Assembly (NCBI GenBank): GCA_964494915.1
Contig: CAZBTP010000001.1
Coordinates: forward strand, 6,792-70,791
Direction: 5' to 3'
DNA: 64,000 nt
Source of the DNA: Candidatus Woesearchaeota archaeon
GTDB lineage: Archaea; Nanobdellota; Nanobdellia; Pacearchaeales; GW2011-AR1
Shown: one piece after another, positions 12,404-64,000 of the stretch
How positions within the stretch are numbered: the first letter of the stretch is position 1
Layout: each line of letters opens with the position of its first letter
Position numbers and translations under genes: made by a program
Notes under the pieces: model-generated
The model's input: the letters and a program-made list of their open reading frames with translations, nothing else
Told to the model about the DNA's origin: nothing
Database searches by the model: none

Positions 12404-12445
12404 AAGTTAAGACATATAAACACTTTGCTTCTCAATTATATACGC

Positions 12446-34999: not shown

Positions 35000-35042
35000 A
35001 TCCAATAAACGTACAGGAGCTTTATAAGGCTTGTCGAGAAAA

Positions 35043-37256: not shown

Positions 37257-37268
37257 CTGTCATGATGT

Positions 37269-37754
37269 TTGAATGGCCCAGACGGACTTCGTGATAAAAA
37301 GTTTCAAAGTAGGGTAATCTCAACATCTTTGTTTTCTGGAAAGTTTTTTATACCGCCTCTTCTTAGATCAAAAATGAGAAAGGAAGTCGGCAATTGGTTA
37401 AAACAGGCAAATAAAGACTTAGAAGTAGCAGAAAAGAATATCAAAATTGAAGAATATTACTCTGCTGTTTTTTGGTGCCAGCAAGCTGTTGAAAAAGGAT
37501 TAAAAGCAGTATATATACTAAAACATAATACCTTGCCGCCAAAAATACACGACTTAGTAGAAATTTGTAGATTGGTAAAGGCACCAGACAACATAGTCTT
37601 GCTGTCCGGGAAGATCGTCACAGCATACATATTCTCACGTTATCCGGGGGCTGCTCCAGAGATGCCCGAAGACTATTATGACAAGGGCAAGGCAGAAGAA
37701 CATGTTAAAATAGCTAAGGAGGTTCTAGAATGGGTTATAAAACTGATAAAATAA
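37269..37754 (+). CDS. HEPN-domain protein
   Basis: FWCQQAVEKGLKAVYILKHNTLPPKIHDL, typical of the HEPN helical core. Start may be MRKEVGN at about 37374. Confidence 0.6.
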   Translation: MNGPDGLRDKKFQSRVISTSLFSGKFFIPPLLRSKMRKEVGNWLKQANKDLEVAEKNIKIEEYYSAVFWCQQAVEKGLKAVYILKHNTLPPKIHDLVEICRLVKAPDNIVLLSGKIVTAYIFSRYPGAAPEMPEDYYDKGKAEEHVKIAKEVLEWVIKLIK

Positions 37755-38047
37755 TTAATTCTTTTGTAAAAAAAGTTAGAAATAAGGTTCCTTCGTCAAG
37801 AATTTATTTATTTGGCTCTAGGGCGAGGGGAACTGCAAAAAAAGGTAGTGATTACGACTTCCTTATTATAAGTAAGGATTTCAGAAATTTTAATTTTGAA
37901 GAAAGATCTGCCAAGATTTATTTTCTAAAAAGAAAGATTCCTGCGGCGATGGATATTTTATGCTACACTCCAGAAGAATTTGAAAAAAAGAAAAAGCAGA
38001 TTGGTATTGTTAAAATCGCTGTTGAAGAGGGAATCGAGATAAAATGA
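37730..38047 (+). CDS. minimal nucleotidyltransferase (MNT)
   Basis: IYLFGSRARGTAKKGSDYDFLII (GS-x9-DxD). Overlaps HEPN gene end. Confidence 0.7.
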   Translation: MGYKTDKIINSFVKKVRNKVPSSRIYLFGSRARGTAKKGSDYDFLIISKDFRNFNFEERSAKIYFLKRKIPAAMDILCYTPEEFEKKKKQIGIVKIAVEEGIEIK

Positions 38048-38160
38048 TATTATTTTACTTTATTATCGGCTTGATTGAAATTCTATTATTTTTGTTCTTG
38101 TCGCTTAATGGAACTTATTTATCCAGATTATGTGTCCCTCTTGAAAAATTAGATTGTATT

Positions 38161-38277
38161 ATCAAAAAAACTTTGAGTTTTACCACACCTTAAAAGATGT
38201 GGTTTGTTAGTTTTTTGGATGCTCAAGGAACTTCCGCATCTTGAAAGGTGCGGTTTTCGTCAAGTTCCTTGACATAA
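38161..38277. repeat. structured repeat element, copy 1 (two nested hairpins plus ACAUAA tail); second copy at 60690-60807
   Basis: atcaaaaaaactttgagttttaccacacc..gtgg..gctcaaggaact.ccgca.cttgaaaggtgcggttttcgtcaagttccttgacataa is shared with 60690-60807 with about 5 differences, which are positioned to preserve pairing (G-U wobble). Confidence 0.75.
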
Positions 38278-38348
38278 TTAAAAAATCAATTAGTTAGGAC
38301 CTCGTTGCATAAAAGAGCGCCTGTGCTTAAATTGCCGCTGTCTCTTCA
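38277..38348. repeat. 72-bp perfect direct repeat, right copy
   Basis: Identical to 37185-37256. Its reverse complement encodes the C-terminal 19 aa of the Toprim ORF. Confidence 0.9.
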
Positions 38349-38724
38349 TCGTATTATCGAGGTTTTCTACCTTCGTCATAAAGTTATGAATGCCTTCGAT
38401 ATGCGGAATATTTGCTTTGATAAGAATGCCACGGAGTGCTGAATCAATGCGACACCCTAATTCCTGGAGAATTGGTTTGATTGTTTCGTAAAGTTTTCTC
38501 CCTCGTTTGTCAAGATCCGTAAGGATACAGATTTTCTCTTTTTTACCGAGTCCAGCGACAATTTCTTCGATTCTCTCTCTAAGAGGGACAGCTGTTTTGT
38601 GGATTGTATAGACTTTATCGAAACCAAAGAGACGGAGTGCATCCCTATCCTTTTTTCCTTCAACAAGAATAACGTACGCTTTGAAGGATTCAATTTCATT
38701 TCTGAGCCTTTGATTGAATTTCAT
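38290..38724 (-). CDS. small Toprim-domain protein
   Basis: VILVEGKKDRDAL...ICILTDLDKRGRKL matches the Toprim E...DxD pattern. C-terminus encoded inside the 72-bp repeat. Confidence 0.55.
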   Translation of the reverse strand: MKFNQRLRNEIESFKAYVILVEGKKDRDALRLFGFDKVYTIHKTAVPLRERIEEIVAGLGKKEKICILTDLDKRGRKLYETIKPILQELGCRIDSALRGILIKANIPHIEGIHNFMTKVENLDNTMKRQRQFKHRRSFMQRGPN

Positions 38725-44501: not shown

Positions 44502-44885
44502 ATGACTATGAAAGACTTGTTTGATGCAAAGATCGTGTGTAAGCAATGTGACGTACAGATGAAACCAATCTACGTCGAAAAGTCTGGTTTTCGTCTGCGA
44601 GCAATTCACTGTCCACACTGCAATGATAAGATTATTCATCCCGGAGATTTACACGATTTAGAGCAGTATAATGGCTTGCGGCAGAAAACGTTCGATGTGA
44701 AATTACGTATGGTAGGAAACAGCCATGCAATCAGTATCCCGAAAGAGATTGTTGATTTTATTAATGAAACACACCAGCGCATGCATAAACAGATGAGCGA
44801 TATGGTACGTTTAGGATTTGAGGATTTTGGAAAGTTGAGCATTACATTTTTTAATGATGCTCAAAAGAGGGGGCGCGAATGGTAA
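44502..44885 (+). CDS. zinc-ribbon plus AbrB/SpoVT-like (swapped-hairpin) small protein, translationally coupled to cdc48
   Basis: CKQCD...CPHCN ribbon. [22 protein letters not shown] resembles AbrB/MazE. Stop overlaps the CDC48 start (ATGG at 44879). Confidence 0.5.
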
Positions 44886-47800
44886 AGAGCACAGGTATTA
44901 AACTAAAAGTCGTTGAGTCATTGCAAGACGATGTATACAAAGGAGTTGCACGAATCGATCCGCAGATCATGCGATCGATGGGTTTGATGAGGGGCGATAT
45001 TATCACAATTCAAGGCGGGCGAGAAACGCAAGCGATTGTCGATCGTGCATACCCTGCTGATGTCGGCGAGAGTATTATTCGTATCGACGGTCTGATCAGA
45101 AAGAATGCGCGTATTGGCGTCGGTGAGCACGTTATCGTCAAGAAAGCAACGAGCAGACCAGCAACAAAGGTCATTATTGCACCTGCACAGCAAGGGATTA
45201 TGGTACAAGGCGATCCTGAAATGTTAAAGCAGGGTTTGTTAGGACGCCCAGTTGCAAAGGGAGATATCATCTCATTAGGAGGAGTGCATCGCCGGAGAGA
45301 TAGTATAGGTGATGGTTTTCCTGACTTCTTCGGCGATCTACATGATCTGTTCGGAGGGCATCTTGCATTTCCTGGCTTTCAACACCTACGATTTATCGTC
45401 GTTTCAACAATACCAAATCAGCAGTGTTTTATCAATGAAGATAGCGAGATCGTACTAAATCCAAAGGCCGTTGATATCTCTGAAGATGCAATGCCGGGTA
45501 TTACATACGAAGAGATTGGCGGTTTAAGGGACGAGATTAAAAAAATACGTGAAATGGTCGAACTTCCGTTGAAACATCCTGAGATCTTTGAACGTCTTGG
45601 CATTGACGCGCCAAAGGGAGTTTTATTACATGGTCCACCAGGAACTGGAAAGACACTCCTCGCAAAGGCTGTGGCGAATGAGTCCGATGCTAATTTCATT
45701 TTGTTAAATGGTCCTGAGGTCATGAGTAAATTTTACGGGGAATCTGAGAAAAAGATTAGAGATATCTTCGAAGAAGCAGAGAAGCATGCACCGAGCATTA
45801 TCTTTTTCGACGAGATTGATGCGATCGCGCCGAAGCGAGAGGATGTACAAGGAGAGGTTGAACGAAGGGTGGTAAGTCAGTTATTATCAATGATGGATGG
45901 TTTAAAGTCAAGAGGAAAGGTTGTTGTTATTGGAGCGACAAATAGGGTTAATTCTGTTGATCCTGCGTTACGAAGACCTGGAAGATTTGACCGAGAGATT
46001 GAGATCTCTGTCCCCGGAAAGGAGGCGCGTTTAGATATACTAAAGATTCATACGCGAAATATGCCATTAACAAAAAATGTCAATCTTGATATGCTTGCAG
46101 GAAAGACGCACGGTTTTGTTGGCGCTGATTTGTCCGCGTTGACAAAAGAGGCTGCGATGAATGTTCTACGAAAGATGCTACCTGAGCTTAAGATGGACAG
46201 TGAAGAACCAATACCAAAGGAGGTTTTGGAAAAAGCTATTGTTCGCGTCGAGGACTTTGAAGATGCATTAAAGGTTGTACGCCCGAGTGCAATGAGAGAA
46301 GTTTTTGTTGAAACACCAAATGTTTCCTGGGAAGACGTTGGTGGCCTAGAAAAAACAAAGCAAGAATTGAAGGAAGCCGTTGAATGGCCGATTACGAATC
46401 CTGACGGCTTTAAACGACTCGGTATCAGAGCACCACGGGGAATCTTGTTGTATGGACCTCCAGGAACAGGGAAGACGCTATTAGCGAAGGCAGTTGCGAA
46501 GGAATCTGAGGCAAACTTTATTCATATTAAAGGACCTTCGCTATTAAGTATGTGGGTCGGAAAGTCGCTTCCCTATGAGGAAGAGGTTATTGTAATGAAA
46601 AATGGGCTTGTTGATAGAAAACCCATTGGAAGGCTTGTTGAAAACAAAGAGAAGGCTGATGTTATAAGTTTTGATAAACATAAAAAAGTAAAGTTCTCTC
46701 CGATAAAGGATTTTATACTCCATAATTCGGATGGGTCTCTTGTTGAGATCACTACTGCAAGTGGTAGGAAGATTCGTGTAACGAAAGATCATTCATTGTT
46801 TAGTTTGTATGGTACTGAGATTATTGATCTGCCAACGACTCATCTTAAAGAGAATGAGAGCTATATTGCGATTCCGCGGAAACTTCCTCTTCCTGAGATC
46901 GAACCGGAGCCGATTAATCTCTTGCATGTTCTTGAGGAAGAAATTTCTGTTTCTTTTAATAGCTATATTGGGGAAGCGGTTAAGGTGTTAGGAAAAGAAC
47001 GATCTGCCGAAGTACTTGAGATACCTCTAAAGTATATGTATGATGTGCTTAGCAAAGAGTTGGCGATCTCCGCAAAAGGATTTCTAGCCCTCATGAAGGA
47101 AGCAGGAATAGCGTTCGACTATAAGCAGACTAGTATCCATGTACGAAATAGCACCCACTCAATGCAAGCTTCTTTGATTATTACTCCAGAATTGTGCGAA
47201 CTTCTTGGACTATGGGTTGCTGAAGGCGATTACAATAAAAAAAGCGTTCGTATTCATGCGATGAATAAGGAGATACGAATGAGAGTGAGAGAACTTTTAG
47301 ATGTCTGTCGTTTACCCTTCTCGACTAATAAAGAAACCTTTAGTATCAACTCGTTATTATTCCAGCGTATCATGAAGGAAGTTTTCAAGTTATATGATAA
47401 AGCCCATAATAAGCGAATACCTGCTTTGGTGTTTACTTTACCACGGCGATATATTCATTCTTTTTTGAGAGGTTATTACAGTGGAGATGGTTCTATTTAT
47501 TCTACGAATGGAAGAAGTTCTGCTATTGAAGCTGCGACAAAAAGTGAGAAACTAGCGAATGATTTACTTTATCTATTGTTAGGGCTTGGTATCGTTGGAA
47601 GGGTTTATGAAAAGAGCATTGATACAGAACGCTATTATCGAGTTATGTTTATGGGAGTCGACTATCTCACCGTATTTAGCGAGATAGGCTTTATTGATAC
47701 CAAGAGAAATAATAGGATTCTGTTGTACATTAAAAGTAAGAAATGGAAAAGAAGTGATAATATTCCTATTACAGGAGATTTGTACACGCTTCTTCCAAAA

Positions 47801-48619
47801 TCACGAAGATCGAATGAAAGTATTGAACGAGAAGAACTGAGAAAGATTGGGAACCAGTTGAATAATGAAAACATATTAAAATTGGTTGATGCCGATGTTT
47901 ATTTTGATAAGGTCGTTGAAATTACCAATCTCGACTATTCTCTCCCTGTATACGATCTAACAATAAATCCAACTGAGAATTTTGTTGCAGGATTTGGTGG
48001 TGTGTTCGTGCATAATAGCGAAGAAGGCGTTCGAAAGGTTTTTGAGCGCGCGCGGCAGGTCGCACCCTGTGTTGTGTTCTTTGACGAGATTGATGCACTT
48101 GCAGGAAAACGAGGGTTAGAAGTCGGGACAAAGGTAACCGAACGTGTTTTGAATCAGCTCTTAGCAGAGATTGACGGTCTTGAAGACCTAAAAGACGTAA
48201 CTATTATTGGTGCTACGAATCGGCCAGATATGTTAGATCCGGCTATCTTACGACCAGGAAGGTTCGATCGAGTGATCTTGGTTGATATACCCGATGAAAC
48301 AAGTCGTCAGAGAATTTTAGAGATCCATACCAAAAAGACACCGTTGGGAGACGACGTTGATATACGCGAGCTTGTAAAGTTAACCGATGGTTTTGTTGGT
48401 GCTGATTTAGAAGCGTTAGTACGTGAAGCTGCGCTGAATGCATTACGGAAAGATAACAGCGCGAGTATGGTGATGCTTGATGATTTCGACGAAGCGTTCA
48501 AGAGGGTTAAACCCTCAGTATCGCGCGACACTGCGCAGCGATACAAAAAGATCGAAGAGTATTATTTAAAGCGAGCAAAAGCAGGATTAGAAAGTTCCAG
48601 CCCTATGTATGCAGGATAA
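44879..48619 (+). CDS. cdc48: CDC48/VCP-like AAA+ ATPase containing a 484-aa LAGLIDADG intein in the D2 domain
   Basis: N-domain, two Walker A GPPGTGKT, two DEID Walker B, SRH. Extein about 762 aa once 46565-48016 is removed. Confidence 0.9.
46565..48016 (+). mobile_element. intein with LAGLIDADG homing-endonuclease domain inserted between WVGK and SEEGVRK of CDC48 D2
   Basis: Begins with Ser, ends VHN followed by Ser. Motifs [11 protein letters not shown] and [13 protein letters not shown]. Flanks reconstitute the CDC48 consensus LLSxWVGESE. Confidence 0.85.
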
Positions 48620-48711
48620 TCGTATTTTGAAACCGAAAAAAAATCGCTCAAAGAACTCCTTTCCAATTGGCATGGGGCGTCGGTTTCGATCGTGATTTGA
48701 AGCTTGGACCC

Positions 48712-48742
48712 TCTCACGCTAGGTCCCTCTCATCTCTTTTTC
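48712..48742. repeat. 31-bp direct repeat (copy 1) flanking the protease gene 48897-51782
   Basis: tctcacgctaggtccctctcatctctttttc is identical at 48712-48742 and 51777-51807. Confidence 0.85.
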
Positions 48743-48896
48743 TTTTTTAGCATGTTTTAATTAACGGGCTGGACCGCGGGGAATTATTCGACTGCACGTA
48801 CCGTCAATGCAAATCTCTTCTTCTATGCATTCCTGAAGTTGTTCTTCTCGAACACCGCAGGTGTCAACCGAGTAAACATCCGCATTGAAACATATT

Positions 48897-51782
48897 TTAG
48901 AACCGACAACTGTCTCCACGACATGAACGTCCACCACAGCCCGTATATAACGACGAGGGATTCCCACAGGAGTCAAACCAGTAAACATTCCCATTATAGC
49001 AGCTTTTGTATGCAAAATCCGAGCAACATCCTGAAAAATCGAATAAGCAATTGGAATTGCAACCTAATAGTCCACGGTCCCAACAAAAGTTTCCACAGGT
49101 TTTTCCGTTCAATTTGTTTCCTTCGCATTGTTCACCGGGTTCTATTAGGCCGTTTCCACAAATGGCCTGCACCCGGTCTATTGAAGAGGGATTTTCCAAG
49201 ACTACAAGAGCAACTGGCAGGCTTCCACTCCTCCGGAATTGGTTTATCGACTTCAGATAAAGGTTTTCCTTAATTGCGGGTTTGATTTGGGCATTTTGGA
49301 AATTGATTACAGTTTGGGGGTTAACGGTCTGGGAACCAATAACGATATTAGAGGTATCCAACAATTCAAATACCGCACTCGGCCGGTTGTCTGAATTGGA
49401 GTTTATTGAAACCAGTTTCATTTTCATGGTTTGGCCTTCAAAAATCCCTTTGCCTGTCAAGAAGATCATTGATCCCACGTCAATGGTTTTTGTTTCAAAT
49501 GTTCTGTCGCTGGGTTGTTCGATGCAGTAAATTCTTTGTCGGGTTGAACAATCGGATAATGATCTTTTGGTTCTTTCCCATTCAATCGTATTAGTCCCGT
49601 CAATTATCCCAGAAGCGCCTTTTACGGTGGCGCTATGTTGGTCAAAAGTCCAGTCCTGGCAAGTGAGAAGAGCACCCAAAGTCGGAGTCAATCGGTTGCT
49701 TGGTCTCAAAGGTTTTTTTCCAGTCCAAACAAAAGAGTTGACCAACGTTTTTGTTTCATCCAAATTAATGGGGTGTCGAATAGTTCCATCGGTAAGGTCA
49801 TTCCAATCATTTGCGATCCGTGTCCCGTCGAGTAACTGGTAGGGAAAGGGTGTTTCAGCGATTCCATTTCCTGGTTCCATAGCGGAAGTGCCCAGATAGG
49901 CTTTCCATCTTCCTCCCAAGTTGGCGTTGTCCGCGAGTATTTGGCATTGAAAGTCTGCCCCGCGTGTTCCACCGAGGTTTCCTGAAAATTGAGTGCTCGA
50001 AACAAACACTCGAAAGCGATTGCAATCCAATTCGCAGTTCGCAAGGTTTTCGTAGGGTTCGCAGACATTATTGCCACAAGATAAAGGAGAATAGGGTGGA
50101 AAATCAATTTTAACTTGGGTTTCTTCTAAGTTCGTCTTTAAATTGGTGATTCCAACATCGTTAAATGGTGCAATAACTGTTTGACCAGTTGGGATAATCG
50201 GCTTCAGCCAATCCCACTTATCATTTGTTCGCGGATTAGAATGGGGAGTCATATCGAGTAAAATAGGAGACGAGAAATCGTAATCGCTTAACTTTTTATG
50301 AGCCATCGGGCCGTTTATATCGTACTTTTCGCCACCATATATAGCGTCTTTGCCCAGGGGCTGTCGGAATTCAAGATAAAAAGTATAATCCTGCCTTGCT
50401 CCGCACGGAATTTTTAAGACTTTGGTGTTCAGACCCGCTCGTTCAAGCGGAGTTAACGCAATAATTGCATCCTGAGTCACATCCACTATGTTCCCTGAAT
50501 TAAACCAACCCAGTGTTTCTTTTTGGATGCTATTAAAATGTCCGTCGAGGCCGCCCATAATATCAAAATAATCACCATACTCGAAAACAGAACATGCATT
50601 CGGACTGTGAGAAAAAGAGACATCTCCGCATTCCAAACTGCTGGAGTGAGGCAGCCCCAAATTGTGCCCAAATTCATGAATAAATACGTTATAAAAAACA
50701 TCATCGAATCGATATTCTGCTATCAACAGAACCGAAGTTAAAGTTGAACTGCCATCTTGCGTATTAATAAAAGACGATCCGAGAGCAAATCCCAGACCAC
50801 ATGACACTCCGGTGGAAACAATGACTGCGATTCGTTGATAATCCGGATAGAAAATATCAGCATCGGCTACCTCCAGTGCCCTCTGAAGTAGTCCGTGAGA
50901 AGAACACACTTCTACGTCTCCTGAAGTTTCAATGTGGATGATATCCGAGGGTGTATCTCCTCCTTGGTACCATCCAAACACATTGCCAGTAAGCCATGTT
51001 TTACCGTAAGAAACTTCTTTGTAATAAGAATCAACCGAATCCGCATTGGTTAAACCGAATATGCGATCGTGAATTTCTTCTGGAGATACAGTGGGGGTAG
51101 GGCCATCCGAAAAAGCAACTAAAATTACGGCGATTTTTTGTTCTCCCGTCGTCGGAATTTGCGTCCTATCAACCTCAGCACCTGCAATGCCGAGTACTTG
51201 GTCCGCGTTCGCGAGGATAACCTGATTGTCAAGCGCGTACCCACTTAAAACCACTTCTGACCCTGAGTTGGTTTTAGGTTCCCCCATTGCAAAAAATAGT
51301 TCGGATCTCCCAGTTTTTTCTTTCAGAAAGTACCGCTGTTTATACTTTTTGTTTTCGAAGTCGTCCTCGTGCCAGACTTCAAATGTTCCTTGTTTTCGAA
51401 TGGACTGTTCAATATATAGTTTTATCCCTGGAGGCAACCGGTTTCGGGTTTCTCCCGGAAGTGCGAGTTCTAAAAAAGCCTTTGGGTCTTTTTTGATTAA
51501 TTGTAGCATTTTTTGTTTGCGTTGTTTGGCGAAGGTCACTCGTTTGGAGAGTGGAAGAGCATTATTCAGGAGTTGTGTATCGAACTTTTTGATTTGTTCC
51601 TTGTCGCTTACAGCGCTGGCAAAATCCGTTGCAGTGTTTTTTGGTCGAGAAGATGCAATCCCGGAATTTTCTAATATTAAATTTGGACCAAAAACCGAGC
51701 TTTGGATAACTGCTAGTATGCCCACAGCGGAGATAATAAAAACGACGAGTATCCAATTTAGCTGGTGCTTGAACGATCTCAC
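48897..51782 (-). CDS. secreted zinc metalloprotease, M6/InhA-like, with Cys-rich C-terminal region. GTG start.
   Basis: N-terminal TM/signal. EQKIAVILVAF...DSYYKEVSYGKTWLTGNVFGWY...HEFGHNLGLPH (HExxHxxGxxH). C-terminal Cys-rich modules. The start codon GTG lies inside the 31-bp repeat. Confidence 0.7.
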   Translation of the reverse strand: MRSFKHQLNWILVVFIISAVGILAVIQSSVFGPNLILENSGIASSRPKNTATDFASAVSDKEQIKKFDTQLLNNALPLSKRVTFAKQRKQKMLQLIKKDPKAFLELALPGETRNRLPPGIKLYIEQSIRKQGTFEVWHEDDFENKKYKQRYFLKEKTGRSELFFAMGEPKTNSGSEVVLSGYALDNQVILANADQVLGIAGAEVDRTQIPTTGEQKIAVILVAFSDGPTPTVSPEEIHDRIFGLTNADSVDSYYKEVSYGKTWLTGNVFGWYQGGDTPSDIIHIETSGDVEVCSSHGLLQRALEVADADIFYPDYQRIAVIVSTGVSCGLGFALGSSFINTQDGSSTLTSVLLIAEYRFDDVFYNVFIHEFGHNLGLPHSSSLECGDVSFSHSPNACSVFEYGDYFDIMGGLDGHFNSIQKETLGWFNSGNIVDVTQDAIIALTPLERAGLNTKVLKIPCGARQDYTFYLEFRQPLGKDAIYGGEKYDINGPMAHKKLSDYDFSSPILLDMTPHSNPRTNDKWDWLKPIIPTGQTVIAPFNDVGITNLKTNLEETQVKIDFPPYSPLSCGNNVCEPYENLANCELDCNRFRVFVSSTQFSGNLGGTRGADFQCQILADNANLGGRWKAYLGTSAMEPGNGIAETPFPYQLLDGTRIANDWNDLTDGTIRHPINLDETKTLVNSFVWTGKKPLRPSNRLTPTLGALLTCQDWTFDQHSATVKGASGIIDGTNTIEWERTKRSLSDCSTRQRIYCIEQPSDRTFETKTIDVGSMIFLTGKGIFEGQTMKMKLVSINSNSDNRPSAVFELLDTSNIVIGSQTVNPQTVINFQNAQIKPAIKENLYLKSINQFRRSGSLPVALVVLENPSSIDRVQAICGNGLIEPGEQCEGNKLNGKTCGNFCWDRGLLGCNSNCLFDFSGCCSDFAYKSCYNGNVYWFDSCGNPSSLYTGCGGRSCRGDSCRF

Positions 51783-51807
51783 GCTAGGTCCCTCTCATCT
51801 CTTTTTC
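51777..51807. repeat. 31-bp direct repeat (copy 2), overlapping the protease GTG start
   Basis: Identical to 48712-48742. Confidence 0.85.
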
Positions 51808-51986
51808 CTTTTTTTGCAATTGTAATATCCACTATTAATCTTCAATCGATTATTTAAGTTAATCATTGTTTTTATTCCTTTCGTTGCTTGATACTATTTA
51901 AAGGATCCTTACCAAGATATACATATACATCAGATAAGAAAAGAAACAAAGCACGCTCCTCCTAACAAGACCAAAAAGTTTCAAGT

Positions 51987-53378
51987 TTATGGAATAGTTT
52001 CCGCCATAAAAAAAACTTTATTTGACACAACACGAGCGTGTTTGTTATTATAAACAAATGAAGCACTCGCAGAAGGCAGTTCAAATCTACCAATAACATT
52101 AAGTGTTGTGTAGATTATATACGAATAAACACGTACCTCCCCTGCATTAAGTTTTTCTATGTTCCACGTAAGTCTCTTTGTGTTCGGATCAACATGCTCG
52201 TCCGATGTTCTGCCAAACTGTTCATAGAGTTTTGTCGCCGTTGGTAGCTGGTCTATTATTCTTACATGCTCAAGATATTTTTGTGCTTTTGCAGTGAGTG
52301 TAACCTTAAGTGCGAAATGGCTACTTTTTGTTTTTATGAATGATACCTTCTTATGAAGCGTCACTGGTGTGCGGATATAGATCCTTACAGCGAGCGTTCC
52401 AAGAATAATTATTGCAAGAATAATTGTCGGAAGAGTATAATTTGAGGTAGTTGATACAATTATTGAGTCGCTTGGGTTCAGGAATGATCGCCAGCGATAG
52501 GTAACATATAGTCCTTTCCGTTCTATTTCATGAGGCGTTGGTTCTTCACGAGTAAGAAAACGAGAGAGAATATCCTTTTTTATTTCTACAGTTTCTGCAA
52601 TCGGTGTATTTCCTTCGTTTGTTTTTTTAACAGTCGTTCTTCGTATGATAATCCCTTCAGACGAACGCTCAACAATAACGCCTTCCCGCTCTCTATAATC
52701 AAGTGTTATATCGAATTCTACTTTTTTGTTCTCGAGAATAATTCCAACACTCGCCGAATAAAACCCTGCTGCAATCTGTCGCGTTCGCTCTCGATCAATT
52801 GGAAGCGAAATATCTTTTATTTCATAAGGACCCAGTGTTAGTTTTTCTTCCTGGTCAAAGAATCGTGAGGTAAGTTGTACGCTGAGATTCTCTATAGGTA
52901 TACCTTCTTTGTTCTTTACGCGAACAGTTATTGTTGTATCCATCGGATTTATTGGCGCCGCGGTTATCTCAAAGATTTCCTGGATAGGAACTATCTTCAT
53001 AAGGAGTGTGTCTTTTGTAATTCCAGTGTTCTGCCCTCGTAGTTGATATTCGAATTGGTAGAAGCCGCTAGATTTTCGCACCTCTTTATTTGGATTTGCA
53101 GTTACTTCCAGTGTTGTCTTCCCTGATGGAAGATCAAACGTTCCCCTCGGGGTCATTGAGACTCCTACGAAAGAATAGATCTCAAAGGTGTCTTGCTTCC
53201 CGAGGTTATTAATCGTAAATTCAAAGATCGCTGGATTGTTGAGCTCCGCAATTACAATGCTATGCTTCTCCTTTTTTTCTATCTCTATTCCCTGGGCACT
53301 TGTAAGTGTTAGGAGAAGCATAAGTGAGAAGAGTGTACAAGAGAGAAAAAGTAACACGAACAACGACGCTCTTTTCAT
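51987..53378 (-). CDS. type-I membrane-anchored surface protein
   Basis: Signal peptide MKRASLFVLLFLSCTLFSL..., TM LPTIILAIIILGTLAV at about aa 305, and a cytoplasmic tail of about 140 aa. Confidence 0.5.
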   Translation of the reverse strand: MKRASLFVLLFLSCTLFSLMLLLTLTSAQGIEIEKKEKHSIVIAELNNPAIFEFTINNLGKQDTFEIYSFVGVSMTPRGTFDLPSGKTTLEVTANPNKEVRKSSGFYQFEYQLRGQNTGITKDTLLMKIVPIQEIFEITAAPINPMDTTITVRVKNKEGIPIENLSVQLTSRFFDQEEKLTLGPYEIKDISLPIDRERTRQIAAGFYSASVGIILENKKVEFDITLDYREREGVIVERSSEGIIIRRTTVKKTNEGNTPIAETVEIKKDILSRFLTREEPTPHEIERKGLYVTYRWRSFLNPSDSIIVSTTSNYTLPTIILAIIILGTLAVRIYIRTPVTLHKKVSFIKTKSSHFALKVTLTAKAQKYLEHVRIIDQLPTATKLYEQFGRTSDEHVDPNTKRLTWNIEKLNAGEVRVYSYIIYTTLNVIGRFELPSASASFVYNNKHARVVSNKVFFMAETIP

Positions 53379-53989: not shown

Positions 53990-54922
53990 TTATTGGGAAG
54001 ACGATTGGCGAGGTCGGATATTAACAACTGCACCATTATTCTCTTTTGAGAGCTCACGTTCTTGATGATAAACCACAAACGAAACACGGTTGGTTTCTCG
54101 AGGGATATAGATATTGGTAACTGTTATAATGCGCTTTGTACCAATTGAATAATTTCCGATATCAAAGGTTTTTACCCTCTCTTCATTCGCTGAAAGATCA
54201 AGGAAGGCGTTTTTTGCTTCTTTGAGTCCGTCGTTTGCAATAATAACCTCAATATTCAGGTAGCGACCTGTTTTGTTTGCTTTTACTCTCTCTATAACAA
54301 GATCACTAAGTGCAGAATCACGGTAGAGATTGTTAATTTCCTCAATAATGTACGCATCTATTGTCTGCCGGCAGTTTGTAACCGGATAGATAATACTTGT
54401 TTTATGTGCATTATGGTCAAAGCCAAGAGCATGGAGAATTTCGTGCGTTGCTACTTGAGGAGTTTTGCAGCTCTCTGGACGGTAGAGTGCTATTTTTCCA
54501 GACGTGATCACCGCATATCGTGTCGCGTTGATAATCTCTGTTGGTCCGCCCTCCCCTGCAACAAAATGATTTTCTTGTGTTGGTTGTGGAGCAATGTTTT
54601 CACACGAAATCTCAATCTGAGCCTCTAAAGACTCATTAAACATAAGGATCGTTTTTTGTTGAAGAAGTGCAAAAGCCGCTCGCCCATCTGTTCTCTTTTT
54701 TTGGTCACAGGATTCACTAAAAGAATAAGATATAATCCTATCTGGATAGCGCATATTTGGGTAGAATTGCGAGCTTTTCGTTGAGATATTCTCGGTCGTT
54801 ATCGAAGTGAATGTCTCAAACTCTTGCGGCGGGGTAGGAAGATTTACCCAAAGAAAATAAATAGAAAATATAAGCAGGCTAAAAAGCACAAGGAAAACAA
54901 GTGCATTGAATACAACCCCCAT
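53990..54922 (-). CDS. membrane-anchored metzincin-type zinc metalloprotease
   Basis: N-terminal TM. HEILHALGFDH (HExxHxxGxxH). Confidence 0.65.
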   Translation of the reverse strand: MGVVFNALVFLVLFSLLIFSIYFLWVNLPTPPQEFETFTSITTENISTKSSQFYPNMRYPDRIISYSFSESCDQKKRTDGRAAFALLQQKTILMFNESLEAQIEISCENIAPQPTQENHFVAGEGGPTEIINATRYAVITSGKIALYRPESCKTPQVATHEILHALGFDHNAHKTSIIYPVTNCRQTIDAYIIEEINNLYRDSALSDLVIERVKANKTGRYLNIEVIIANDGLKEAKNAFLDLSANEERVKTFDIGNYSIGTKRIITVTNIYIPRETNRVSFVVYHQERELSKENNGAVVNIRPRQSSSQ

Positions 54923-56861: not shown

Positions 56862-59693
56862 ATGGGAATAAAGAAAGTAAGTGAGAACGTCTGGGAAATC
56901 GAAAAAGAAGGAAGGATGCTAGTTCCAGGGATTGTGTTTGCCTCAGATAGCTTAATGGCTTCAATTCAAAAAGATAAGACACTCGAACAAGTGAAAAACG
57001 TTGCACAGCTTCCAGGAATTGTTGGATATTCTCTCGCGATGCCAGATGCACATCAAGGATATGGAATGGCTGTCGGAGGTGTAGCCGCGTTTGATTCCGA
57101 GCACGGAATTATTTCTCCCGGAGCAGTAGGTTATGACGTGAACTGCTTAACGGGCGATACAGAAATCCTTACAGAATTCGGAAATTCGATAAAAATTGAA
57201 GAATTTGAAAAATACAAATCAGAAATAGAAATTGAACAAAATAACCAAAAAATTAAAAAAATAATATTCTCGCGCAATCTGCCAACCTTAAACCTTGATA
57301 CAAAAAAAATAGAAGATAAATCTATTAATTTATTTATGTCAAGGCACGCGGAAGATGTATGTGAGATAACTTTAGCATCCGGCTTAAAAATTAAAGCTAC
57401 AAGCGATCATCCTTTTTTAACAAAACAAGGAATGAAAAAATTATCTGAATTAAAAGATAACACAGAACTAGCAATAAATACTTTTGAAGGAGTTGAATCC
57501 AGCGAAGTGATAAATGAAAAGGAAGCAATCCTTGCAAAGTTAATTGGTTATATGTTTGGGGATGGTTCCTTCTACGAAACAAAAGGAGAATTACGTGCGG
57601 TAGCTTATGGGCAAAAAGAAGACCTTGAAAAAATAAAGGAAGACTTATCAAGATTAGAAATAAATTCAAGTCTCTTTTGCAGAATAAGGGAGCATAAAAT
57701 ACAGACTCGTTATGGCGAAAAAAGTTTTAATTCTACAAACTGGGAGTTACATATTTATAATCAAGCTTTTCTTAAGATTTTAAAAGAAAGAGGTCTCACG
57801 TTAGGAAATAAAACAAGGCAGAAAATCAGGGTTCCCGAATGGATAAAAAAGTCAAGTAAATTAACAAAAAGATTATTTTTAGCTGGTTTTTTCGGCGCAG
57901 AAATGTCATCTCCTAAAACACTCTCTAGAACATGCTTTTGTAGCTCAACTATTAATCAGAATAAAATAACCTTACTAAAAAAAAACTGTAGAGATTTTCT
58001 TATAGACATCTCTCTGCTTTTAGAAGAATTTGGGATTAAAAATTACAAAATATCAGAGATGGAGGATTATATCAATAAATACAAAGAAAAAACATCAAGA
58101 TTAAGGCTAGCTTTATACGGAGAGGATACAATGTTAAAACTATGGAGAACAATAGGTTTTGAGTATAATAAAAAAAGACAGGACTTGGCAAACATAGCCT
58201 CTTTGTATATCTTACTAAAAAAGCAGGAAAATCAACGGAGGATTGAACTGGCTAGAAAAATAAAACAATACAGGAAAAATGGACTTACAATAGCAGAAGT
58301 AAAGGGACTCTTCCATAAAGAGATTAACGAAAGATTTATAGAAAGGCACTATTACGAAAATGCAAAACAAAGAATCAATCTTGATTTTATTACTTTTAAT
58401 GAGTTCAGAGATATAAAACTCAAAGAAATAAGAGAAATTGGGACTCTTCTTGACAAAATAATTTCTATTAAAAAGATAGAAGGCATACATAAAGTTTATG
58501 ATTTTAACATTCAGGATAATCATAATTTTATTGCAAATGGCTTTATAGTTTCGAATTGTGGAGTACGATTGCTTGCGACGAATATAACGAAAAAAGAATT
58601 TTTACCGAAACGAGGAATAGTATTAAATGAACTCTATAAGAATGTGCCGTCCGGCATCGGAAGAGGAACAGGAATAAAACTTTCAGATGCTGAATGTAAC
58701 GCGGTCTTAGAAAAGGGATTAAAATGGGCACGAGAAAAAGGATATGCGTCTGAGGAAGATATTGAGCACACAGAAGATAAGGGCTGTATTCAAGGAGCGA
58801 ATGCAGCAAAAGTTTCGCAAAGAGCAAAAGCAAGAGGCAGGGATCAGCTCGGGAGCATTGGGGCAGGAAATCATTTCCTTGAAGTACAAGAGATCGTGGA
58901 GATTTTTGATGATCGTGTTGCAAAAACGTTTGGATTAAACGAAGTCAAACAGATCGTAGTAATGATCCATACCGGCTCACGAGGGTTAGGACACCAAACT
59001 GCATCAGATTATATTATGAAAATGGAAAAAGAGTATGGATATAAACACCTTCCAGATCGCGAGTTGGCATATGCGCCAATTACTTCTGCTTTGGGAAAAG
59101 ACTATAGAGAAGCAATGGCGAGTGCTGCTAATTTCGCATTTACAAATCGGCAGATGATCACGCATCTTATAAGAAAAAGTTTTGAGAAGTATTTTCCAAA
59201 CGCGAAACTAAGCGTTGTGTATGATATCGCACATAATATTGCGAAGCTTGAGGAGTTCGAAGTCGAGAACGAGAAAAAAATATTGTGCGTACACCGAAAA
59301 GGTGCAACTCGATCATTTGGACCAGGAAGAAAAGAAATTCCGAGCGATTATAGAGAGGTAGGCTGTCCGATTTTTATTCCAGGAAGTATGGGAACATTTT
59401 CGTATGTCCTCGTCGGAACAAAGAAAGCACGTGAGATTTCGTTTGCGTCAACAGCCCATGGTGCTGGACGAATGCTATCAAGGACGTACGCAAAACAACA
59501 TATTTCTGCTGAGCATTTAAAACAAGGGCTAGCAGAAAGAGATATTATAATTAAAGCTGGATCGCTAAAAGGCATGATTGAAGAAGCGCCAGAGGCGTAT
59601 AAGGATGTGAGCGAGGTTGTTCGTGTTTCACATGCGCTCGGTATTGGAAGCGTAGTTGCAAAGCTGAAACCATTAGCCGTAATGAAAGGGTGA
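56862..59693 (+). CDS. rtcB: RNA-splicing ligase RtcB containing a 471-aa LAGLIDADG intein
   Basis: PDAHQGYG, GYDVN-CGVRL split by the intein, GAGNHF, HTGSRGLGHQ. Extein 472 aa. Confidence 0.9.
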   Translation: MGIKKVSENVWEIEKEGRMLVPGIVFASDSLMASIQKDKTLEQVKNVAQLPGIVGYSLAMPDAHQGYGMAVGGVAAFDSEHGIISPGAVGYDVNCLTGDTEILTEFGNSIKIEEFEKYKSEIEIEQNNQKIKKIIFSRNLPTLNLDTKKIEDKSINLFMSRHAEDVCEITLASGLKIKATSDHPFLTKQGMKKLSELKDNTELAINTFEGVESSEVINEKEAILAKLIGYMFGDGSFYETKGELRAVAYGQKEDLEKIKEDLSRLEINSSLFCRIREHKIQTRYGEKSFNSTNWELHIYNQAFLKILKERGLTLGNKTRQKIRVPEWIKKSSKLTKRLFLAGFFGAEMSSPKTLSRTCFCSSTINQNKITLLKKNCRDFLIDISLLLEEFGIKNYKISEMEDYINKYKEKTSRLRLALYGEDTMLKLWRTIGFEYNKKRQDLANIASLYILLKKQENQRRIELARKIKQYRKNGLTIAEVKGLFHKEINERFIERHYYENAKQRINLDFITFNEFRDIKLKEIREIGTLLDKIISIKKIEGIHKVYDFNIQDNHNFIANGFIVSNCGVRLLATNITKKEFLPKRGIVLNELYKNVPSGIGRGTGIKLSDAECNAVLEKGLKWAREKGYASEEDIEHTEDKGCIQGANAAKVSQRAKARGRDQLGSIGAGNHFLEVQEIVEIFDDRVAKTFGLNEVKQIVVMIHTGSRGLGHQTASDYIMKMEKEYGYKHLPDRELAYAPITSALGKDYREAMASAANFAFTNRQMITHLIRKSFEKYFPNAKLSVVYDIAHNIAKLEEFEVENEKKILCVHRKGATRSFGPGRKEIPSDYREVGCPIFIPGSMGTFSYVLVGTKKAREISFASTAHGAGRMLSRTYAKQHISAEHLKQGLAERDIIIKAGSLKGMIEEAPEAYKDVSEVVRVSHALGIGSVVAKLKPLAVMKG
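57144..58556 (+). mobile_element. intein with LAGLIDADG homing endonuclease in RtcB at the GYDVN/CGVRL site
   Basis: Starts CLTGDTEIL (block A), LIGYMFGDGSF and FLAGFFGAEMS LAGLIDADG motifs, ends IVSN followed by Cys. Terminal Asn is preceded by Ser rather than His. Confidence 0.85.
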
Positions 59694-59696
59694 TGT

Positions 59697-60425
59697 ATGA
59701 AGGTTATTATTGTTCGTAACAAAAACGAAGGAGGAGCACGTGCAGCAAAGCTCGTTTCCGATATTATTCAAAACAAAAAGAACTGTACACTCGGATTAGC
59801 GACAGGAAAAACAATGATTCCTTTTTATCGAGCGCTCATCAGCGCGGCGCATACAAAGAAGATAGATTTTTCTCGAGTAAAGACCTTTAATATTGATGAG
59901 TTTTATGGTCTAAACACTCCCGAGAAGGGAAGTTTTCGACATTTTATGGATTCACATTTTTTTCACAGAGTAAATATAAGCAAGAAAAATATTCATTTTT
60001 TAGATGGGAAAAAAAAGGATTATAAAAAAGAGTGTAACGAATACGAACGTGCAATAAAACACAAGGAGGGAATCGATATAGCAATCGTGGGTATCGGAAA
60101 AAACAGGCATATTGGTTTTAATGAGCCCGGATCGTCTTTTGCAAGCAGAACGCGAAAAGTGAGATTGCGCGATGAAACACGGCACGCAAATGCCTGGCTG
60201 TTTGAATCCTTTTCGCGCGTGCCTCAGTATGCGCTAACAATGGGTATTGAAACAATACTCGCTTCACGAAAGATTATCTTGTTAGCCTTCGGAAAAGAAA
60301 AAGCAACTGCTGTTGCAGCCACCTTCAAGCATGTCACACAACAAGTGCCAGCGAGCGTCCTACAACGTCATACTAATGTAACGTTTATTATCGACCGCGC
60401 GGCAGCCAAGCGCGTGTTTAAATAA
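59697..60425 (+). CDS. nagB: glucosamine-6-phosphate deaminase/isomerase family (NagB-like)
   Basis: TLGLATGKTMIPFY, FNIDEFYGL, GIGKNRHIGFNEPGSSFASRTR. Confidence 0.85.
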   Translation: MKVIIVRNKNEGGARAAKLVSDIIQNKKNCTLGLATGKTMIPFYRALISAAHTKKIDFSRVKTFNIDEFYGLNTPEKGSFRHFMDSHFFHRVNISKKNIHFLDGKKKDYKKECNEYERAIKHKEGIDIAIVGIGKNRHIGFNEPGSSFASRTRKVRLRDETRHANAWLFESFSRVPQYALTMGIETILASRKIILLAFGKEKATAVAATFKHVTQQVPASVLQRHTNVTFIIDRAAAKRVFK

Positions 60426-60429
60426 TCCC

Positions 60430-60672
60430 TTGACAATACAATACAATACAATGAAAAAAGTTGTATTTACATTCACAAACGCCCTCTACCCAACACAAAA
60501 GATAATAAAAGAGATAGTATTTAGTGACGATATTATTTCCTCACGCTATTGGTCACTTCAATTATCGAGCGTGTCAGGATTAACACCGGGTCAATATGCA
60601 CTCTCAATAAAAGCCTACAACAGAGAATATATTTCCTCTCCTCCAATAACACTAACATTAACGCTAACCTAA
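60430..60672 (+). CDS. hypothetical small protein
   Basis: 80-aa ORF 5 nt after the nagB stop. Confidence 0.3.
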   Translation: MTIQYNTMKKVVFTFTNALYPTQKIIKEIVFSDDIISSRYWSLQLSSVSGLTPGQYALSIKAYNREYISSPPITLTLTLT

Positions 60673-60689
60673 GTCTCTTTTTTTGAACA

Positions 60690-60807
60690 ATCAAAAAAAC
60701 TTTGAGTTTTACCACACCTTAAAAAGTGTGGTTTGTTAGTTTTTTGGACGCTCAAGGAACTACCGCACCTTGAAAGGTGCGGTTTTCGTCAAGTTCCTTG
60801 ACATAAC
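60690..60807. repeat. structured repeat element, copy 2
   Basis: See copy 1 (38161-38277). Both hairpins are perfect here (ccacacc/ggtgtgg and ccgcacc/ggtgcgg inside caaggaact/agttccttg), followed by ACAUAA. Confidence 0.75.
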
Positions 60808-60855: not shown

Positions 60856-61452
60856 ATGACGCGAGCATTATGCATTGTTGCTCATCCTGATGACGAAACG
60901 ATATGGATGGGCGGAACGATTCTCCAAAAGAAGGACTGGAAGTGGACTATATTTTCACTCTGTAGAAAGAATGACCTAAATAGAATGCCGAGATTTATGA
61001 AGGTATGTAAATTCTATGGTGCGCAAGGTTTTATCGGGGACTTAGATGATGAAAGATTAGAACCACTTTCTGTTTTTGAGGTTATTGATTGTATACAGAA
61101 CTATCTCGATACATCTCATTACGATTATATGTTCACCCATGGAGAGAACGGCGAGTATGGGCATAAACGACACGAAGAAATCCATAAAGCCGTTCAGAAG
61201 TTGTTTTCCCTCGGAGCCTTGAATTGCACGAAGATGTACTATTTTTCGTATGTAGCTGGAACAGAAAGCGCAGCGCATGATTCCGCAATAAAAATACCGA
61301 TCGCAAAACAAGATTCAGACTGGTTTGTTTCTTTAACAAATGAACAGCATGCGACAAAGTTGAAAATTATTCGTGATTTCTACGGATTTTCCGATGGTAT
61401 CTTCGAAACGTTAAGCTGCGGAAAAGAGGAGGCATTTGTGCGTGCCTTATGA
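60856..61452 (+). CDS. PIG-L/LmbE-family N-acetylglucosaminyl deacetylase
   Basis: VAHPDDETIWMGG zinc-binding motif and downstream HxxH. Confidence 0.85.
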   Translation: MTRALCIVAHPDDETIWMGGTILQKKDWKWTIFSLCRKNDLNRMPRFMKVCKFYGAQGFIGDLDDERLEPLSVFEVIDCIQNYLDTSHYDYMFTHGENGEYGHKRHEEIHKAVQKLFSLGALNCTKMYYFSYVAGTESAAHDSAIKIPIAKQDSDWFVSLTNEQHATKLKIIRDFYGFSDGIFETLSCGKEEAFVRAL

Positions 61453-62639
61453 GAATCATGTTACTCTACCCACATCCGCCTGAACCTGATGGACAGAGTT
61501 TACAAGGTGTTAGTCTAATGCAGGGTTTGAAAGAGAATGGGTACGATGTCATCGTATGTGATCGTGCTGATAGCATACAAAAAGAGTGGGCATATCGTTC
61601 ATTCAAACCTGATGTTGCCATTGGCATCGGATACTGGGCTGACACCCCTGATGTGATCTTAGATCCCTTAGAGCACGGCGTACAGGCAGTACCTTGGTTT
61701 AATGCCGATGGTTGGATTGCGAATTACCACCACGTTCTAAATAATCTACCGTTAGTAATGGTTACCAGTACATGGGTGAAATCGACGTATGTACGCGATG
61801 GTGTTTCCGGAGAAAATATTCATATAGCGCCGATCGGTTTTGATCCATCAGTCTTTTATCCACGCTCCGACAGTGCAGTACACGATCTACGGAAAACACT
61901 GGGTGTTGAAGATGACGAAAAAATGATCCTCACGATTGGTGGCGATGCAACAAGTAAAGGCGCACAAGAGATGTTTCGCGCACTTACATTTATTAATCAT
62001 CACTTTCCAAAATGGAAATATGTATGCAAGGTATGGAATAGCTTTTCAGCGCGGAATCATGGAAGGGAAGAGCGTCGTTTAATCCGTGAGCTCGGATTAG
62101 ACATGGATAAGATTGTTTATCTCGAGGGAAAATATTCTTCAGAGTTCGTGGCCCTTTTGTTGAATGCATGCGACATATATGCAGCGCCTTCACGTCTCGA
62201 GGGTTTTGGCATGATCCAGGTTGAGGCGCAGGCATGTGGTAAACCGGTTATTTCAATCAACTGTGGTGGACCACGAGATACAATTATCCATGAAAAAACA
62301 GGATTTCTAGCGAACGTTGCTTCAGAGGTTAAGCTTGAGCGTGAGTGGGTATATCCATGGATGGGATTTGAAGAGAAACACCAGATTGAGTTTCCAGAAC
62401 CAAAAACGTTTGCCTATCGAGCAGATAGTAATCAGCTCGCTGCATATACACTAAAGCTATTAGAAGATGATCGCCTCCGTGAACAAATGGGAAAGAATGC
62501 CACAGCACATGTTCACGAAAGATTTCACTACCGTGCAACAGCACAAAAAATCGTTGACTTAATCGAGGAGCACGTTATGAAAAAGAAAGTTATTGAGACT
62601 GTTCAACACACAGCTGTTGTCGAGCATAGTAAGGATTGA
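61449..62639 (+). CDS. glycosyltransferase family 4 (GT-B, RfaG-like)
   Basis: C-terminal EGFGMIQVEAQACGKPVISINCGGPRDTIIHEKTGFL (Ex7E motif). 4-nt overlap with the upstream deacetylase. Confidence 0.85.
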   Translation: MRIMLLYPHPPEPDGQSLQGVSLMQGLKENGYDVIVCDRADSIQKEWAYRSFKPDVAIGIGYWADTPDVILDPLEHGVQAVPWFNADGWIANYHHVLNNLPLVMVTSTWVKSTYVRDGVSGENIHIAPIGFDPSVFYPRSDSAVHDLRKTLGVEDDEKMILTIGGDATSKGAQEMFRALTFINHHFPKWKYVCKVWNSFSARNHGREERRLIRELGLDMDKIVYLEGKYSSEFVALLLNACDIYAAPSRLEGFGMIQVEAQACGKPVISINCGGPRDTIIHEKTGFLANVASEVKLEREWVYPWMGFEEKHQIEFPEPKTFAYRADSNQLAAYTLKLLEDDRLREQMGKNATAHVHERFHYRATAQKIVDLIEEHVMKKKVIETVQHTAVVEHSKD

Positions 62640-62760
62640 ATAATAGTTTCTCTGTAAAACTAATTATCAAGAAAAGTTAATTTTTTAGTTAAGATAACTC
62701 CCTTTAACTTGACAGCTCAAGCCAAGAGCATGTTTAAATAATCTCTCGACAATATAATAA

Positions 62761-64000
62761 AATGAAAAAAAGAGGTAAAAAGTTGTATAAGTTGTATATC
62801 CTCTATGCCCTAGGTACAGTTCTTCTTCTCACGCTCATAATCTTTGGAATAACCAAAGGAACTATTCACGGAGCATACACGATCGATACAGATGAATATT
62901 TTAATCCTGGTCCTGGTTTATTAGGACTACGCCAAATATCGCGAGAGTACTTCGGTGCTGAGGATTATGTAGTTCTAGCAAAAGAAGGAGATATAAGGAT
63001 CGAGAAAATAACTGAGTATATAATACTCTCAACTAGGACGCCAACAACAACTGTATTTCAAAACTCGTATATTGAGAAACGCGTATCGATAAAAGAATGG
63101 CTTGGGTCAACAGCGAGTCTAATAAAACAATATAATTCAGTAGAAATTCGTGCTAGCTCAGGTAGACTGCTGATAGAGTATAGCGAAAATGATAGGGCAG
63201 CACAACATAGAGGTAAAGTTGAAAATAAAATGCTAATAGAATACCAAGGAGGGATAGTAAAAAGATTTGAAAAAGAGGTTAAGGACTATATTATAGCGGG
63301 TGAGATACCACCAGTGCAATACACACCTCCAGCCTCACTAGACGATCCTAATCTTGAATTAGAGAGTAAATATGTCGAGATAGTTGAATATGACCCTACA
63401 ACAAGCGCTACTGCTTGGAATGATGATCCCCTCAACTTATTTACACGCGGTGATCTGGTTGGGAAACTAAAAAAATACATTCAAGAACATACAGTCTACG
63501 GTTTTAGGACACCCTATCCAGATTTCATTTTAATAACAGATGGTTTAATACAGCATGACGAACGTAGAAAAAAAGAGTATAACCCTCCAGGAATAATCGC
63601 GACATATGACCATACAAAAAGGGAATATACGAAACCACCGACTTTCCCAAATCCTCCGCTTTCACGGAGCCAGCAAAAATTAAAGAAGTATATAAACGAA
63701 CAGACTATTTACCATCCAAATGGTCCAATATATAAACACAGTTCTACTTTAGAAGACTATGATGATAACGGAGTGCCAAAAAGCTCAATAATAAAATCAA
63801 TTCATAATAACGATAAGGGCCAGAACTTTTATAACTATCAGACAAAGAAAACATATGATGAGAACGGAAACCTCATTGAAGAGAAAAAGACAGAAAAGCA
63901 AAATGACGAAGCGACATTAAAGAAACAAAGTTATCTCCATAGCGAAGAAACACCTCAAAAAACATATACATTCAATAAAAGGTGGTATCTTGATACAGCA
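62761..64000 (+). CDS. hypothetical membrane-anchored protein (3' partial, continues past window end)
   Basis: ATG at 62761, N-terminal TM LYILYALGTVLLLTLIIFGI, and over 410 sense codons without a stop in an AT-rich region. Confidence 0.45.

Follow-up and report, generated by a model that had tools for sequence, protein, structure and literature searches.

How did a protease gene in an archaeal genome come to be bracketed by two identical 31-nt direct repeats, one of which spans its start codon? The gene lies at 48897..51782, on the minus strand, of a 64-kb stretch of DNA from a Candidatus Woesearchaeota archaeon (contig CAZBTP010000001.1; we will refer to the whole stretch as the window). 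It is predicted to begin with GTG and to encode a metalloprotease of 961 amino acids. A previous interpretation, made from the nucleotides alone ("the sequence-only reading"), proposed that the gene arrived or was duplicated by recombination between the repeats, and that the repeat provides the promoter and start context. We found that the gain of the gene is well supported and that an ordinary recombination scar is the likeliest explanation for the repeat. DPANN genomes are small and their gene acquisition is poorly documented; this locus is a clean, datable case of the gain of a single gene at a conserved junction.

The protease gene was gained at a conserved junction

The protease gene sits between two genes that meet tail to tail. 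The left anchor of this junction is cdc48 (44879..48619, plus strand), which encodes 1246 amino acids, including an intein with a LAGLIDADG domain. The right anchor (51987..53378, minus strand) encodes a conserved 463-amino-acid DPANN protein of unknown function, which is found in metagenome-assembled genomes of Woese-, Pace-, and Nanoarchaeota. The stop codons of the two anchors are separated by a block of 3,367 nt (48620..51986).

This block, with the protease gene, is absent from the closest relatives. In the related loci L002 and L009 (GCA_964413975.1), whose 463-amino-acid proteins are 76-79% identical to the one in the window, the spacer to the convergent cdc48 is just 20 nt. The spacer is 8 nt in L005, L006, and L010 (52% identity), and about 29 nt or less in L015 (47% identity). 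Gene order on either side of the junction is otherwise collinear with the relatives, and the homology to L002 at the DNA level, which is 83-88% in the flanks, ends at both stop codons. Because these junctions hold about 8-30 nt in the relatives, versus 3,367 nt here, the protease gene is a lineage-specific insertion relative to the closest relatives. So the sequence-only reading was right that the gene arrived. Its composition is not foreign: the GC content, the GC content at third codon positions (GC3), and the synonymous codon usage of the protease gene are within the window's range and are typical for the host.

More distant relatives have other genes at this junction. For example, L014 has a membrane protein and a PIN-like/antitoxin-like pair (9300-10760), while L050 (9170-12510) and L038 (1650-6570) have a second cdc48 paralog and an Hsp20-like gene. 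The junction is a recurrent site of gene gain. We did not find flanking repeats at the other occupied junctions (L014, L050, L038, and L017).

Both repeats are internal to the new DNA

The window contains two copies of the 31-mer (TCTCACGCTAGGTCCCTCTCATCTCTTTTTC) and no more, both on the plus strand and both at the positions reported previously: 48712-48742 (copy A) and 51777-51807 (copy B). There are no further copies with up to 3 mismatches in the window, and none in 100 dinucleotide-preserving shuffles. The similarity of the two copies extends, without gaps, to a unit of 47 nt with 91% identity (48702-48748 for copy A and 51767-51813 for copy B). Outside this unit, the flanking sequences do not align significantly, as judged by shuffling.

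The sequence-only reading took the repeats to be the boundaries of the insertion, but their positions argue against this. Copy A is 92 nt past the stop codon of cdc48, and copy B is 179 nt from the stop codon of the 463-amino-acid gene. Since homology to L002 ends at both stop codons, these 92-nt and 179-nt flanks are novel DNA too; neither recurs elsewhere in the window or among the related loci. In other words, both copies are well inside the 3,367-nt block, and a target-site duplication would be at its very edges. A target-site duplication should also leave one copy of the repeat at the empty site. The spacers of L002, L005, and L015 show no trace of the 31-mer, with the proviso that the flanking coding DNA of even the nearest relative matches the window at only about 85% of positions. 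So the protease-free junctions that had been expected in relatives do exist, but the single copy of the 31-mer that was expected to accompany them is missing.

Another concern was that the 31-mer might be a regulatory motif that is shared by many promoters. This is not what we see, as far as the available sequence reaches (which did not include the rest of the source genome). Besides its absence from the rest of the window, the 31-mer is absent from 1.1 Mb of related loci, even if we allow up to 6 mismatches. Its 20-mer core is absent from a one-genome-per-species set and from JGI metagenomes, and an 18-mer from the repeat is absent from viral contigs (none of these three public collections includes the source genome). 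We therefore read copy A as neither a duplicated insertion target nor a common promoter motif.

Is copy A a duplicated leader of the protease gene?

Copy B is part of the gene. Read along the minus strand, it has an A-rich tract, the TGA stop codon (51797-51795) of a short upstream open reading frame (ORF), a Shine-Dalgarno-like (SD-like) GAGGG, a 7-nt spacer, GTG (51782-51780), and the first codons of the protease. The protease ORF thus begins within copy B, at the start codon that the sequence-only reading had proposed. The first 5 codons are in the 47-nt unit, and only the first 2 of these are within the exact 31-mer. Other genes in the window that are led by an SD sequence have GGAGG-type boxes 6-10 nt before the start codon. 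The next in-frame start is codon 20, and starting there would halve the signal anchor of the protein. The basic residues (R, K, and H) ahead of the anchor are encoded in the 47-nt unit, mostly in its imperfect part.

Copy A, by comparison, is not followed by any gene. Nothing recognizable is encoded behind it, the likeness to the start of the protease stops at codon 6, and the ORF frame behind it has no hydrophobic segment. What does lie near copy A is the other end of the protease gene. A +1 frameshift at about 48897-48905 removes the last 45 codons of the protease, and the out-of-frame continuation (48761..48896, minus strand) ends at the original stop codon (48761-48763). Copy A is 18 nt beyond this restored stop.

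An independent assembly supports these details. A Logan contig (run SRR8863434, k = 31) is identical to 48713-51806 of the window, base for base; it runs from repeat to repeat with 30-nt overlaps. A second Logan contig, which carries the neighboring gene, stops at 51778. So two assemblers agree on the sequence, and the graph of the second forks exactly where the repeat lies. Also, because the independent assembly has the same sequence, the frameshift is probably a real mutation, and we suspect that it is an early sign of decay of the protease gene.

The explanation that we favor, tentatively and at slightly less than even confidence, is that copy A is a duplicated leader of the protease gene, that is, a recombination scar that is internal to the acquired DNA. 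We read copy A as the duplicate because copy B is integral to the gene and because the flanks outside both copies are novel. Similarly, once the frameshift is restored, the gene stops 18 nt short of copy A, so that what seems to be repeated head to tail is the whole stretch between leader and stop codon. In this scenario, the lineage would have gained a 3.37-kb block with a single protease gene between the tail-to-tail cdc48 and 463-amino-acid genes. The direct repeat would be the protease's own translation-start region (the A-rich tract, the SD-like GAGGG, the GTG, and the first 5 codons), and copy A would be the joint of a 3,065-nt unit of leader plus gene that was formerly present at more than one unit length. 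Two routes are conceivable: a tandem duplication or an unequal crossover with a subsequent deletion, or else an over-length copy of a DNA in circular or tandem form. Either way, what would remain is one full unit and the first 47 nt or so of the next. The 31 nt of identity could still mediate the loss of the protease gene by recombination.

Relics of this kind are present elsewhere in the window, between two giant paralogous genes (3104-6319 and 6663-10361), where segments have been duplicated in tandem. There as here, a short fragment from the end of a gene lies head to tail one unit away, is non-coding in its new place, and is nearly identical to its source. Unlike at the giant genes, just one full unit survives here, there is no second copy of the protease, and a deletion or an over-length copy must be assumed.

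Several observations weigh against copy A being a duplicated leader. First, tandem duplication followed by deletion requires two events. Second, the 4 mismatches in the 47-nt unit are all outside of the central 31 nt (by our calculation, P ~ 0.01 under random placement), which would also fit a crossover in the core or selection on the core. Third, copy A includes an internal tandem of two 16-mers (GCTTGGACCCTCTCAC and GCTAGGTCCCTCTCAT; 48702..48733, plus strand) that are identical at 13 of 16 positions, while the corresponding pair in copy B matches at just 10 of 16. On this side of the unit, which is the coding side, all 3 of the differences between A and B bring copy A closer to its neighboring 16-mer. 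So copy A looks ancestral and copy B looks derived, which is the opposite of what is expected for a decaying scar. Fourth, an insertion with a 72-nt target duplication is found just 11 kb away, so duplication that is coupled to insertion does occur in this genome. Finally, we found no closer relative or donor of the protease in the searched databases, where the next-best protease is just 30-34% identical, and because of this the history of the insertion cannot be reconstructed.

Alternative explanations for the repeat

The mismatch pattern and the ancestral look of copy A on the coding side both speak for a second possibility, close to what the sequence-only reading proposed, in which the protease gene integrated as a cassette. 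A circular DNA of 3,065 nt, with the leader and the protease gene, might have recombined by a single Campbell-type crossover with a homologous sequence of about 47 nt that was already resident at the junction, with homologous or site-specific recombination being supplied in trans. If so, then the repeats would be analogous to attL and attR, and the gene could excise. An exact core of 31 nt between mismatched but related flanks is what we would expect if diverged homologs crossed over in their longest identical stretch. Also, two other segments in the window (described below) are bracketed by direct repeats: a HEPN-MNT insert, with a 72-nt exact target duplication and an empty site in L002, and a 2.3-kb segment with two genes, with a 44-nt repeat at 86% identity. 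That more distant relatives hold different cargo at the junction fits integration as well. (The 31-nt core could support excision under any of these explanations.)

The difficulty is with the target. The empty sites of the three nearest relatives have spacers of only about 8-30 nt and lack the 31-mer, and the repeats are 92 and 179 nt inside the novel DNA. Integration by this route would require a leader-like target beforehand, or in other words, an earlier resident cassette. Other occupied junctions in the relatives lack flanking repeats. Furthermore, in Pfam scans of the window's ORFs of at least 150 amino acids, and of a few shorter ones, we did not find any recombinase, transposase, integrase, or resolvase domains, either in the cargo or elsewhere in the window. 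Overall, we consider cassette integration to be unlikely, but worth keeping in mind.

Comparing the locus to known mobile elements leads to a similar view. As in integrative elements that move by tyrosine recombinases or Campbell-type integration, direct repeats of tens of base pairs surround lineage-specific cargo, and precise excision is a potential outcome. Unlike in those elements, neither the cargo nor the 64-kb window has an integrase that we could find, there is no tRNA or 3' end of a gene as the target, the novel DNA extends beyond both repeats, the cargo's own SD sequence and start codon are within one of the copies, and the empty sites lack the sequence. Integrons with gene cassettes and attC sites have been reported in archaea (PMC9668308). 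The protease locus resembles an integron cassette in that a single gene in a DPANN-type genome is bounded by repeated sites. In contrast to integron cassettes, we found no IntI or attI here, the repeat has neither the imperfect inverted symmetry nor the hairpin of attC, and the R'/R'' core consensus is not seen in its sequence.

Transposons likewise leave direct repeats around the DNA that they insert. Their target-site duplications are usually 2-15 bp. The repeat at the protease locus is far longer (31-47 nt), it is absent from the empty site, and we did not find terminal inverted repeats or a transposase. Since the repeat forms no hairpin, and since we found neither terminal inverted repeats nor, among the scanned ORFs of the window, a recombinase, we rejected both integron attC sites and transposon ends as explanations for the repeat.

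Could the two copies instead have been kept identical because the sequence functions in cis at both sites, so that it brackets the protease gene only incidentally? On the plus strand, the repeat might be a terminator or insulator (T5CT6 in copy A and T5CCT7 in copy B), or the 16-nt tandem within the unit might be a protein-binding site. Selection would explain why the mismatches avoid the 31-nt core, and copy A does provide the first strong oligo-T run after cdc48. Against this, there are just 2 copies in 64 kb with about 60 genes, and we found none in the related loci (1.1 Mb) or in any of the three collections of genomes, metagenomes, and viral contigs. Neither strand of the repeat has a significant RNA fold (z = -1.6 to +0.8), and Rfam has no match across 48400-52200 at E values of up to 1. 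Also, on the plus strand, copy B would terminate only antisense transcription. We consider a shared cis element to be quite improbable.

Lastly, an assembly artefact, in which the protease segment is a separate molecule or belongs to another genome and was threaded into the contig via the shared 31-mer, would account for the self-loop on the repeat node in the k = 31 graph (a contig from repeat to repeat is also the signature of a circular contig), but this is very improbable, as the repeat is just 31-47 nt and the two copies have different flanks, so reads of 100-150 nt or a k above 47 would resolve the path; the composition and codon usage of the segment match the host; a 3-kb circle with a protease gene alone, and no replication gene, is implausible; and a deposited 78-kb contig carries the same protein.

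Signals for transcription and translation near the repeats

The sequence-only reading also proposed that the repeat supplies both the promoter and the start context of the protease gene. The start context is indeed in the repeat (the SD-like GAGGG, the 7-nt spacer, the GTG, and 5 codons). The promoter seems not to be: the sole consensus TATA-like box upstream of the protease (TTTAAATA; 51895..51902, minus strand) is outside the repeat and is 112 nt from the GTG. For other genes in the window, the TATA boxes are about 20-36 nt from the start codon.

Between this TATA box and the protease gene, there is a 23-codon ORF (51795..51866, minus strand; its translation is MINLNNRLKINSGYYNCKKRKKR, followed by the stop). 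Its ATG, at 51866, is 28 nt downstream of the TATA box. The ORF is in frame with the protease, and its TGA stop codon is inside the repeat. Judging from this arrangement, it might be a leaderless upstream ORF that is coupled to the GTG start, or else the remnant of a longer original N-terminus of the protease. Reading TGA as a sense codon is ruled out, because in conserved genes, RtcB among them, the TGA coincides with the end of the profile.

There are also candidate terminators near copy A. Within its imperfect unit is a T5-C-T6 tract (48737..48748, plus strand), the first long oligo-T run past the stop codon of cdc48, which is a candidate archaeal terminator and may now serve that gene. On the other strand, a T8 tract (48636..48643, minus strand) is a candidate terminator for the protease gene. 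If the protease transcript does end there, it would run through copy A.

A divergent metzincin

The protease is a new and divergent member of the M11/M6-like metzincins, and we predict that it is membrane-anchored or secreted. It has a signal anchor at the N-terminus (MRSFKHQLNWILVVFIISAVGILAVI, with a hydrophobic stretch of 20 residues), a catalytic domain at approximately residues 212-560, a DUF1554/endostatin-like region, and Cys-rich modules at the C-terminus. The translation of the catalytic domain includes the extended zinc motif HEFGHNLGLPH (HExxHxxGxxH), which aligns weakly to ADAM10 chains.

Which family does it belong to? It had been described as M6-like, which is fair, but it does not reach the cutoffs of the M6 models: it scores 63.9 bits for TIGR03296 (immune inhibitor A; the cutoff is 110.8 bits) and 15.6 bits for PF05547 (the cutoff is 22 bits). 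It does qualify as a member of PF05548 (Peptidase M11, gametolysin), with 28.6 bits versus a gathering cutoff of 21 bits (E = 9.5e-7, residues 218-428). We conclude that the protease is related to the M6 family but falls short of membership by these models, and that it is better filed as M11-like. As in both families, its catalytic domain is about 350 amino acids long and has the HExxHxxGxxH zinc site, with a DIMGG segment further downstream. Unlike known members of these families, it is at most 34% identical to any protein in the databases, and its architecture (the signal anchor, the DUF1554/endostatin-like region, and the Cys-rich modules) is unusual.

The search for similar proteases covered 5.8 billion sequences, and the next-best protease was the one at 30-34% identity that we mentioned above. 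We did not find a relative of the protease in viral contigs. Within the window, the domain in the giant gene 3104-6319 is 33% identical over 375 amino acids (E = 3e-43), and the two share the motifs GEQKIAVILV, SYGKTWLTG.V.GWY, and HExxH, which agrees with what was originally noticed about their catalytic cores. A recent duplication of the protease gene from this domain can be rejected: at 33% identity, the domain is no closer to the protease than unrelated proteins from the databases are. There is no similarity between the protease and the other giant gene (6663-10361).

The C-terminal Cys modules have a pattern of their own, C.N..VY..D.CG. One occurrence is in frame (48963-49001), and another is 36 codons further on, in the +1 frame (48854-48892), within the out-of-frame continuation. 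These are the only 2 occurrences in six frames of 1.1 Mb, and both are in this protease locus.

A second secreted metalloprotease, M10/astacin-like and with a CARDB domain, is encoded just 2 kb away (53990-54922). That gene is syntenic in relatives such as L005.

Other insertions and repeats in the window

On either side of a 1.0-kb insert (37257-38276) are the two exact copies of the 72-nt direct repeat (37185-37256 and 38277-38348). The insert encodes a toxin-antitoxin pair, of which the HEPN protein is at 37269-37754 and the MNT-type nucleotidyltransferase at 37730-38047. The 72-mer is where the 3' ends of a winged helix-turn-helix gene (36930-37205) and a convergent Toprim gene (38290-38724) overlap. 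In L002, the insert is missing, and the tails of the same two genes overlap directly (11730-12161 and 12154-12429). So the HEPN-MNT segment was truly inserted, with duplication of a 72-nt target, and L002 has the empty site.

The 44-nt direct repeat (60404-60447 and 62720-62763; 86% identity) brackets the 2.3-kb segment, which encodes a PIG-L/LmbE-like protein (60856-61452) and a GT4 glycosyltransferase (61449-62639). The 3' end of the gene at 59697-60425 is in the first copy of this repeat. From its layout, this segment looks like an older event of the same type.

We also noticed a 124-nt element that folds into a double hairpin. It occurs twice in the window (38154-38277 and 60683-60806), with 94% identity between the copies, and one copy is directly next to the 72-nt repeat that closes the HEPN-MNT insert. 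Its fold is significant (z = -4.8 to -5.8), the differences between the copies preserve the pairing, and it has no match in Rfam. On a 118-kb metagenome contig from JGI, a related copy (L090, 10380-10560, minus strand) is flanked by two large genes for surface proteins. These features make the element a candidate non-coding RNA, terminator, or mobile hairpin element.

What might these repeats mean together? By itself, the 31-mer would be an ordinary duplication scar, and the protease would be one more divergent secreted metzincin. Yet the short repeat could make the protease gene excisable, and together with the 72-nt duplication around the toxin-antitoxin genes, the locus points to recombination at short sequences as one way in which these organisms gain and lose genes. 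A bolder idea is that this DPANN lineage gains small cargo at convergent junctions without any recombinase gene, by a process that leaves long direct duplications (31-72 nt). Three inserts would then be products of one undescribed mechanism of cassette insertion or excision, which perhaps involves the 124-nt element: the protease gene (31/47 nt), the HEPN-MNT pair (72 nt), and the PIG-L/glycosyltransferase genes (44 nt). We view this as a long shot.

The two giant genes are tandem paralogs whose 5' ends are 93% identical. The spacer between them is a patchwork of fragments, with 95-98% identity, of the 3' ends of neighboring genes. The repeat pairs are at 3053-3181 and 6477-6605, at 6426-6484 and 11665-11723, and at 6196-6329 and 10235-10368. 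Judging from these fragments, the patchwork appears to be the relics of segmental tandem duplication.

The intein of cdc48 is not found in the closest relatives, whose Cdc48 is 762 amino acids. The gene for RtcB (56862-59693, 943 amino acids) has an intein with a LAGLIDADG domain as well. Finally, ARAGORN reported an 86-nt "tRNA-Stop" with the anticodon TTA (35043-35128, minus strand), which overlaps the start of the ORF at 34361-35101; this is probably an intron-containing tRNA that was miscalled by the bacterial model.

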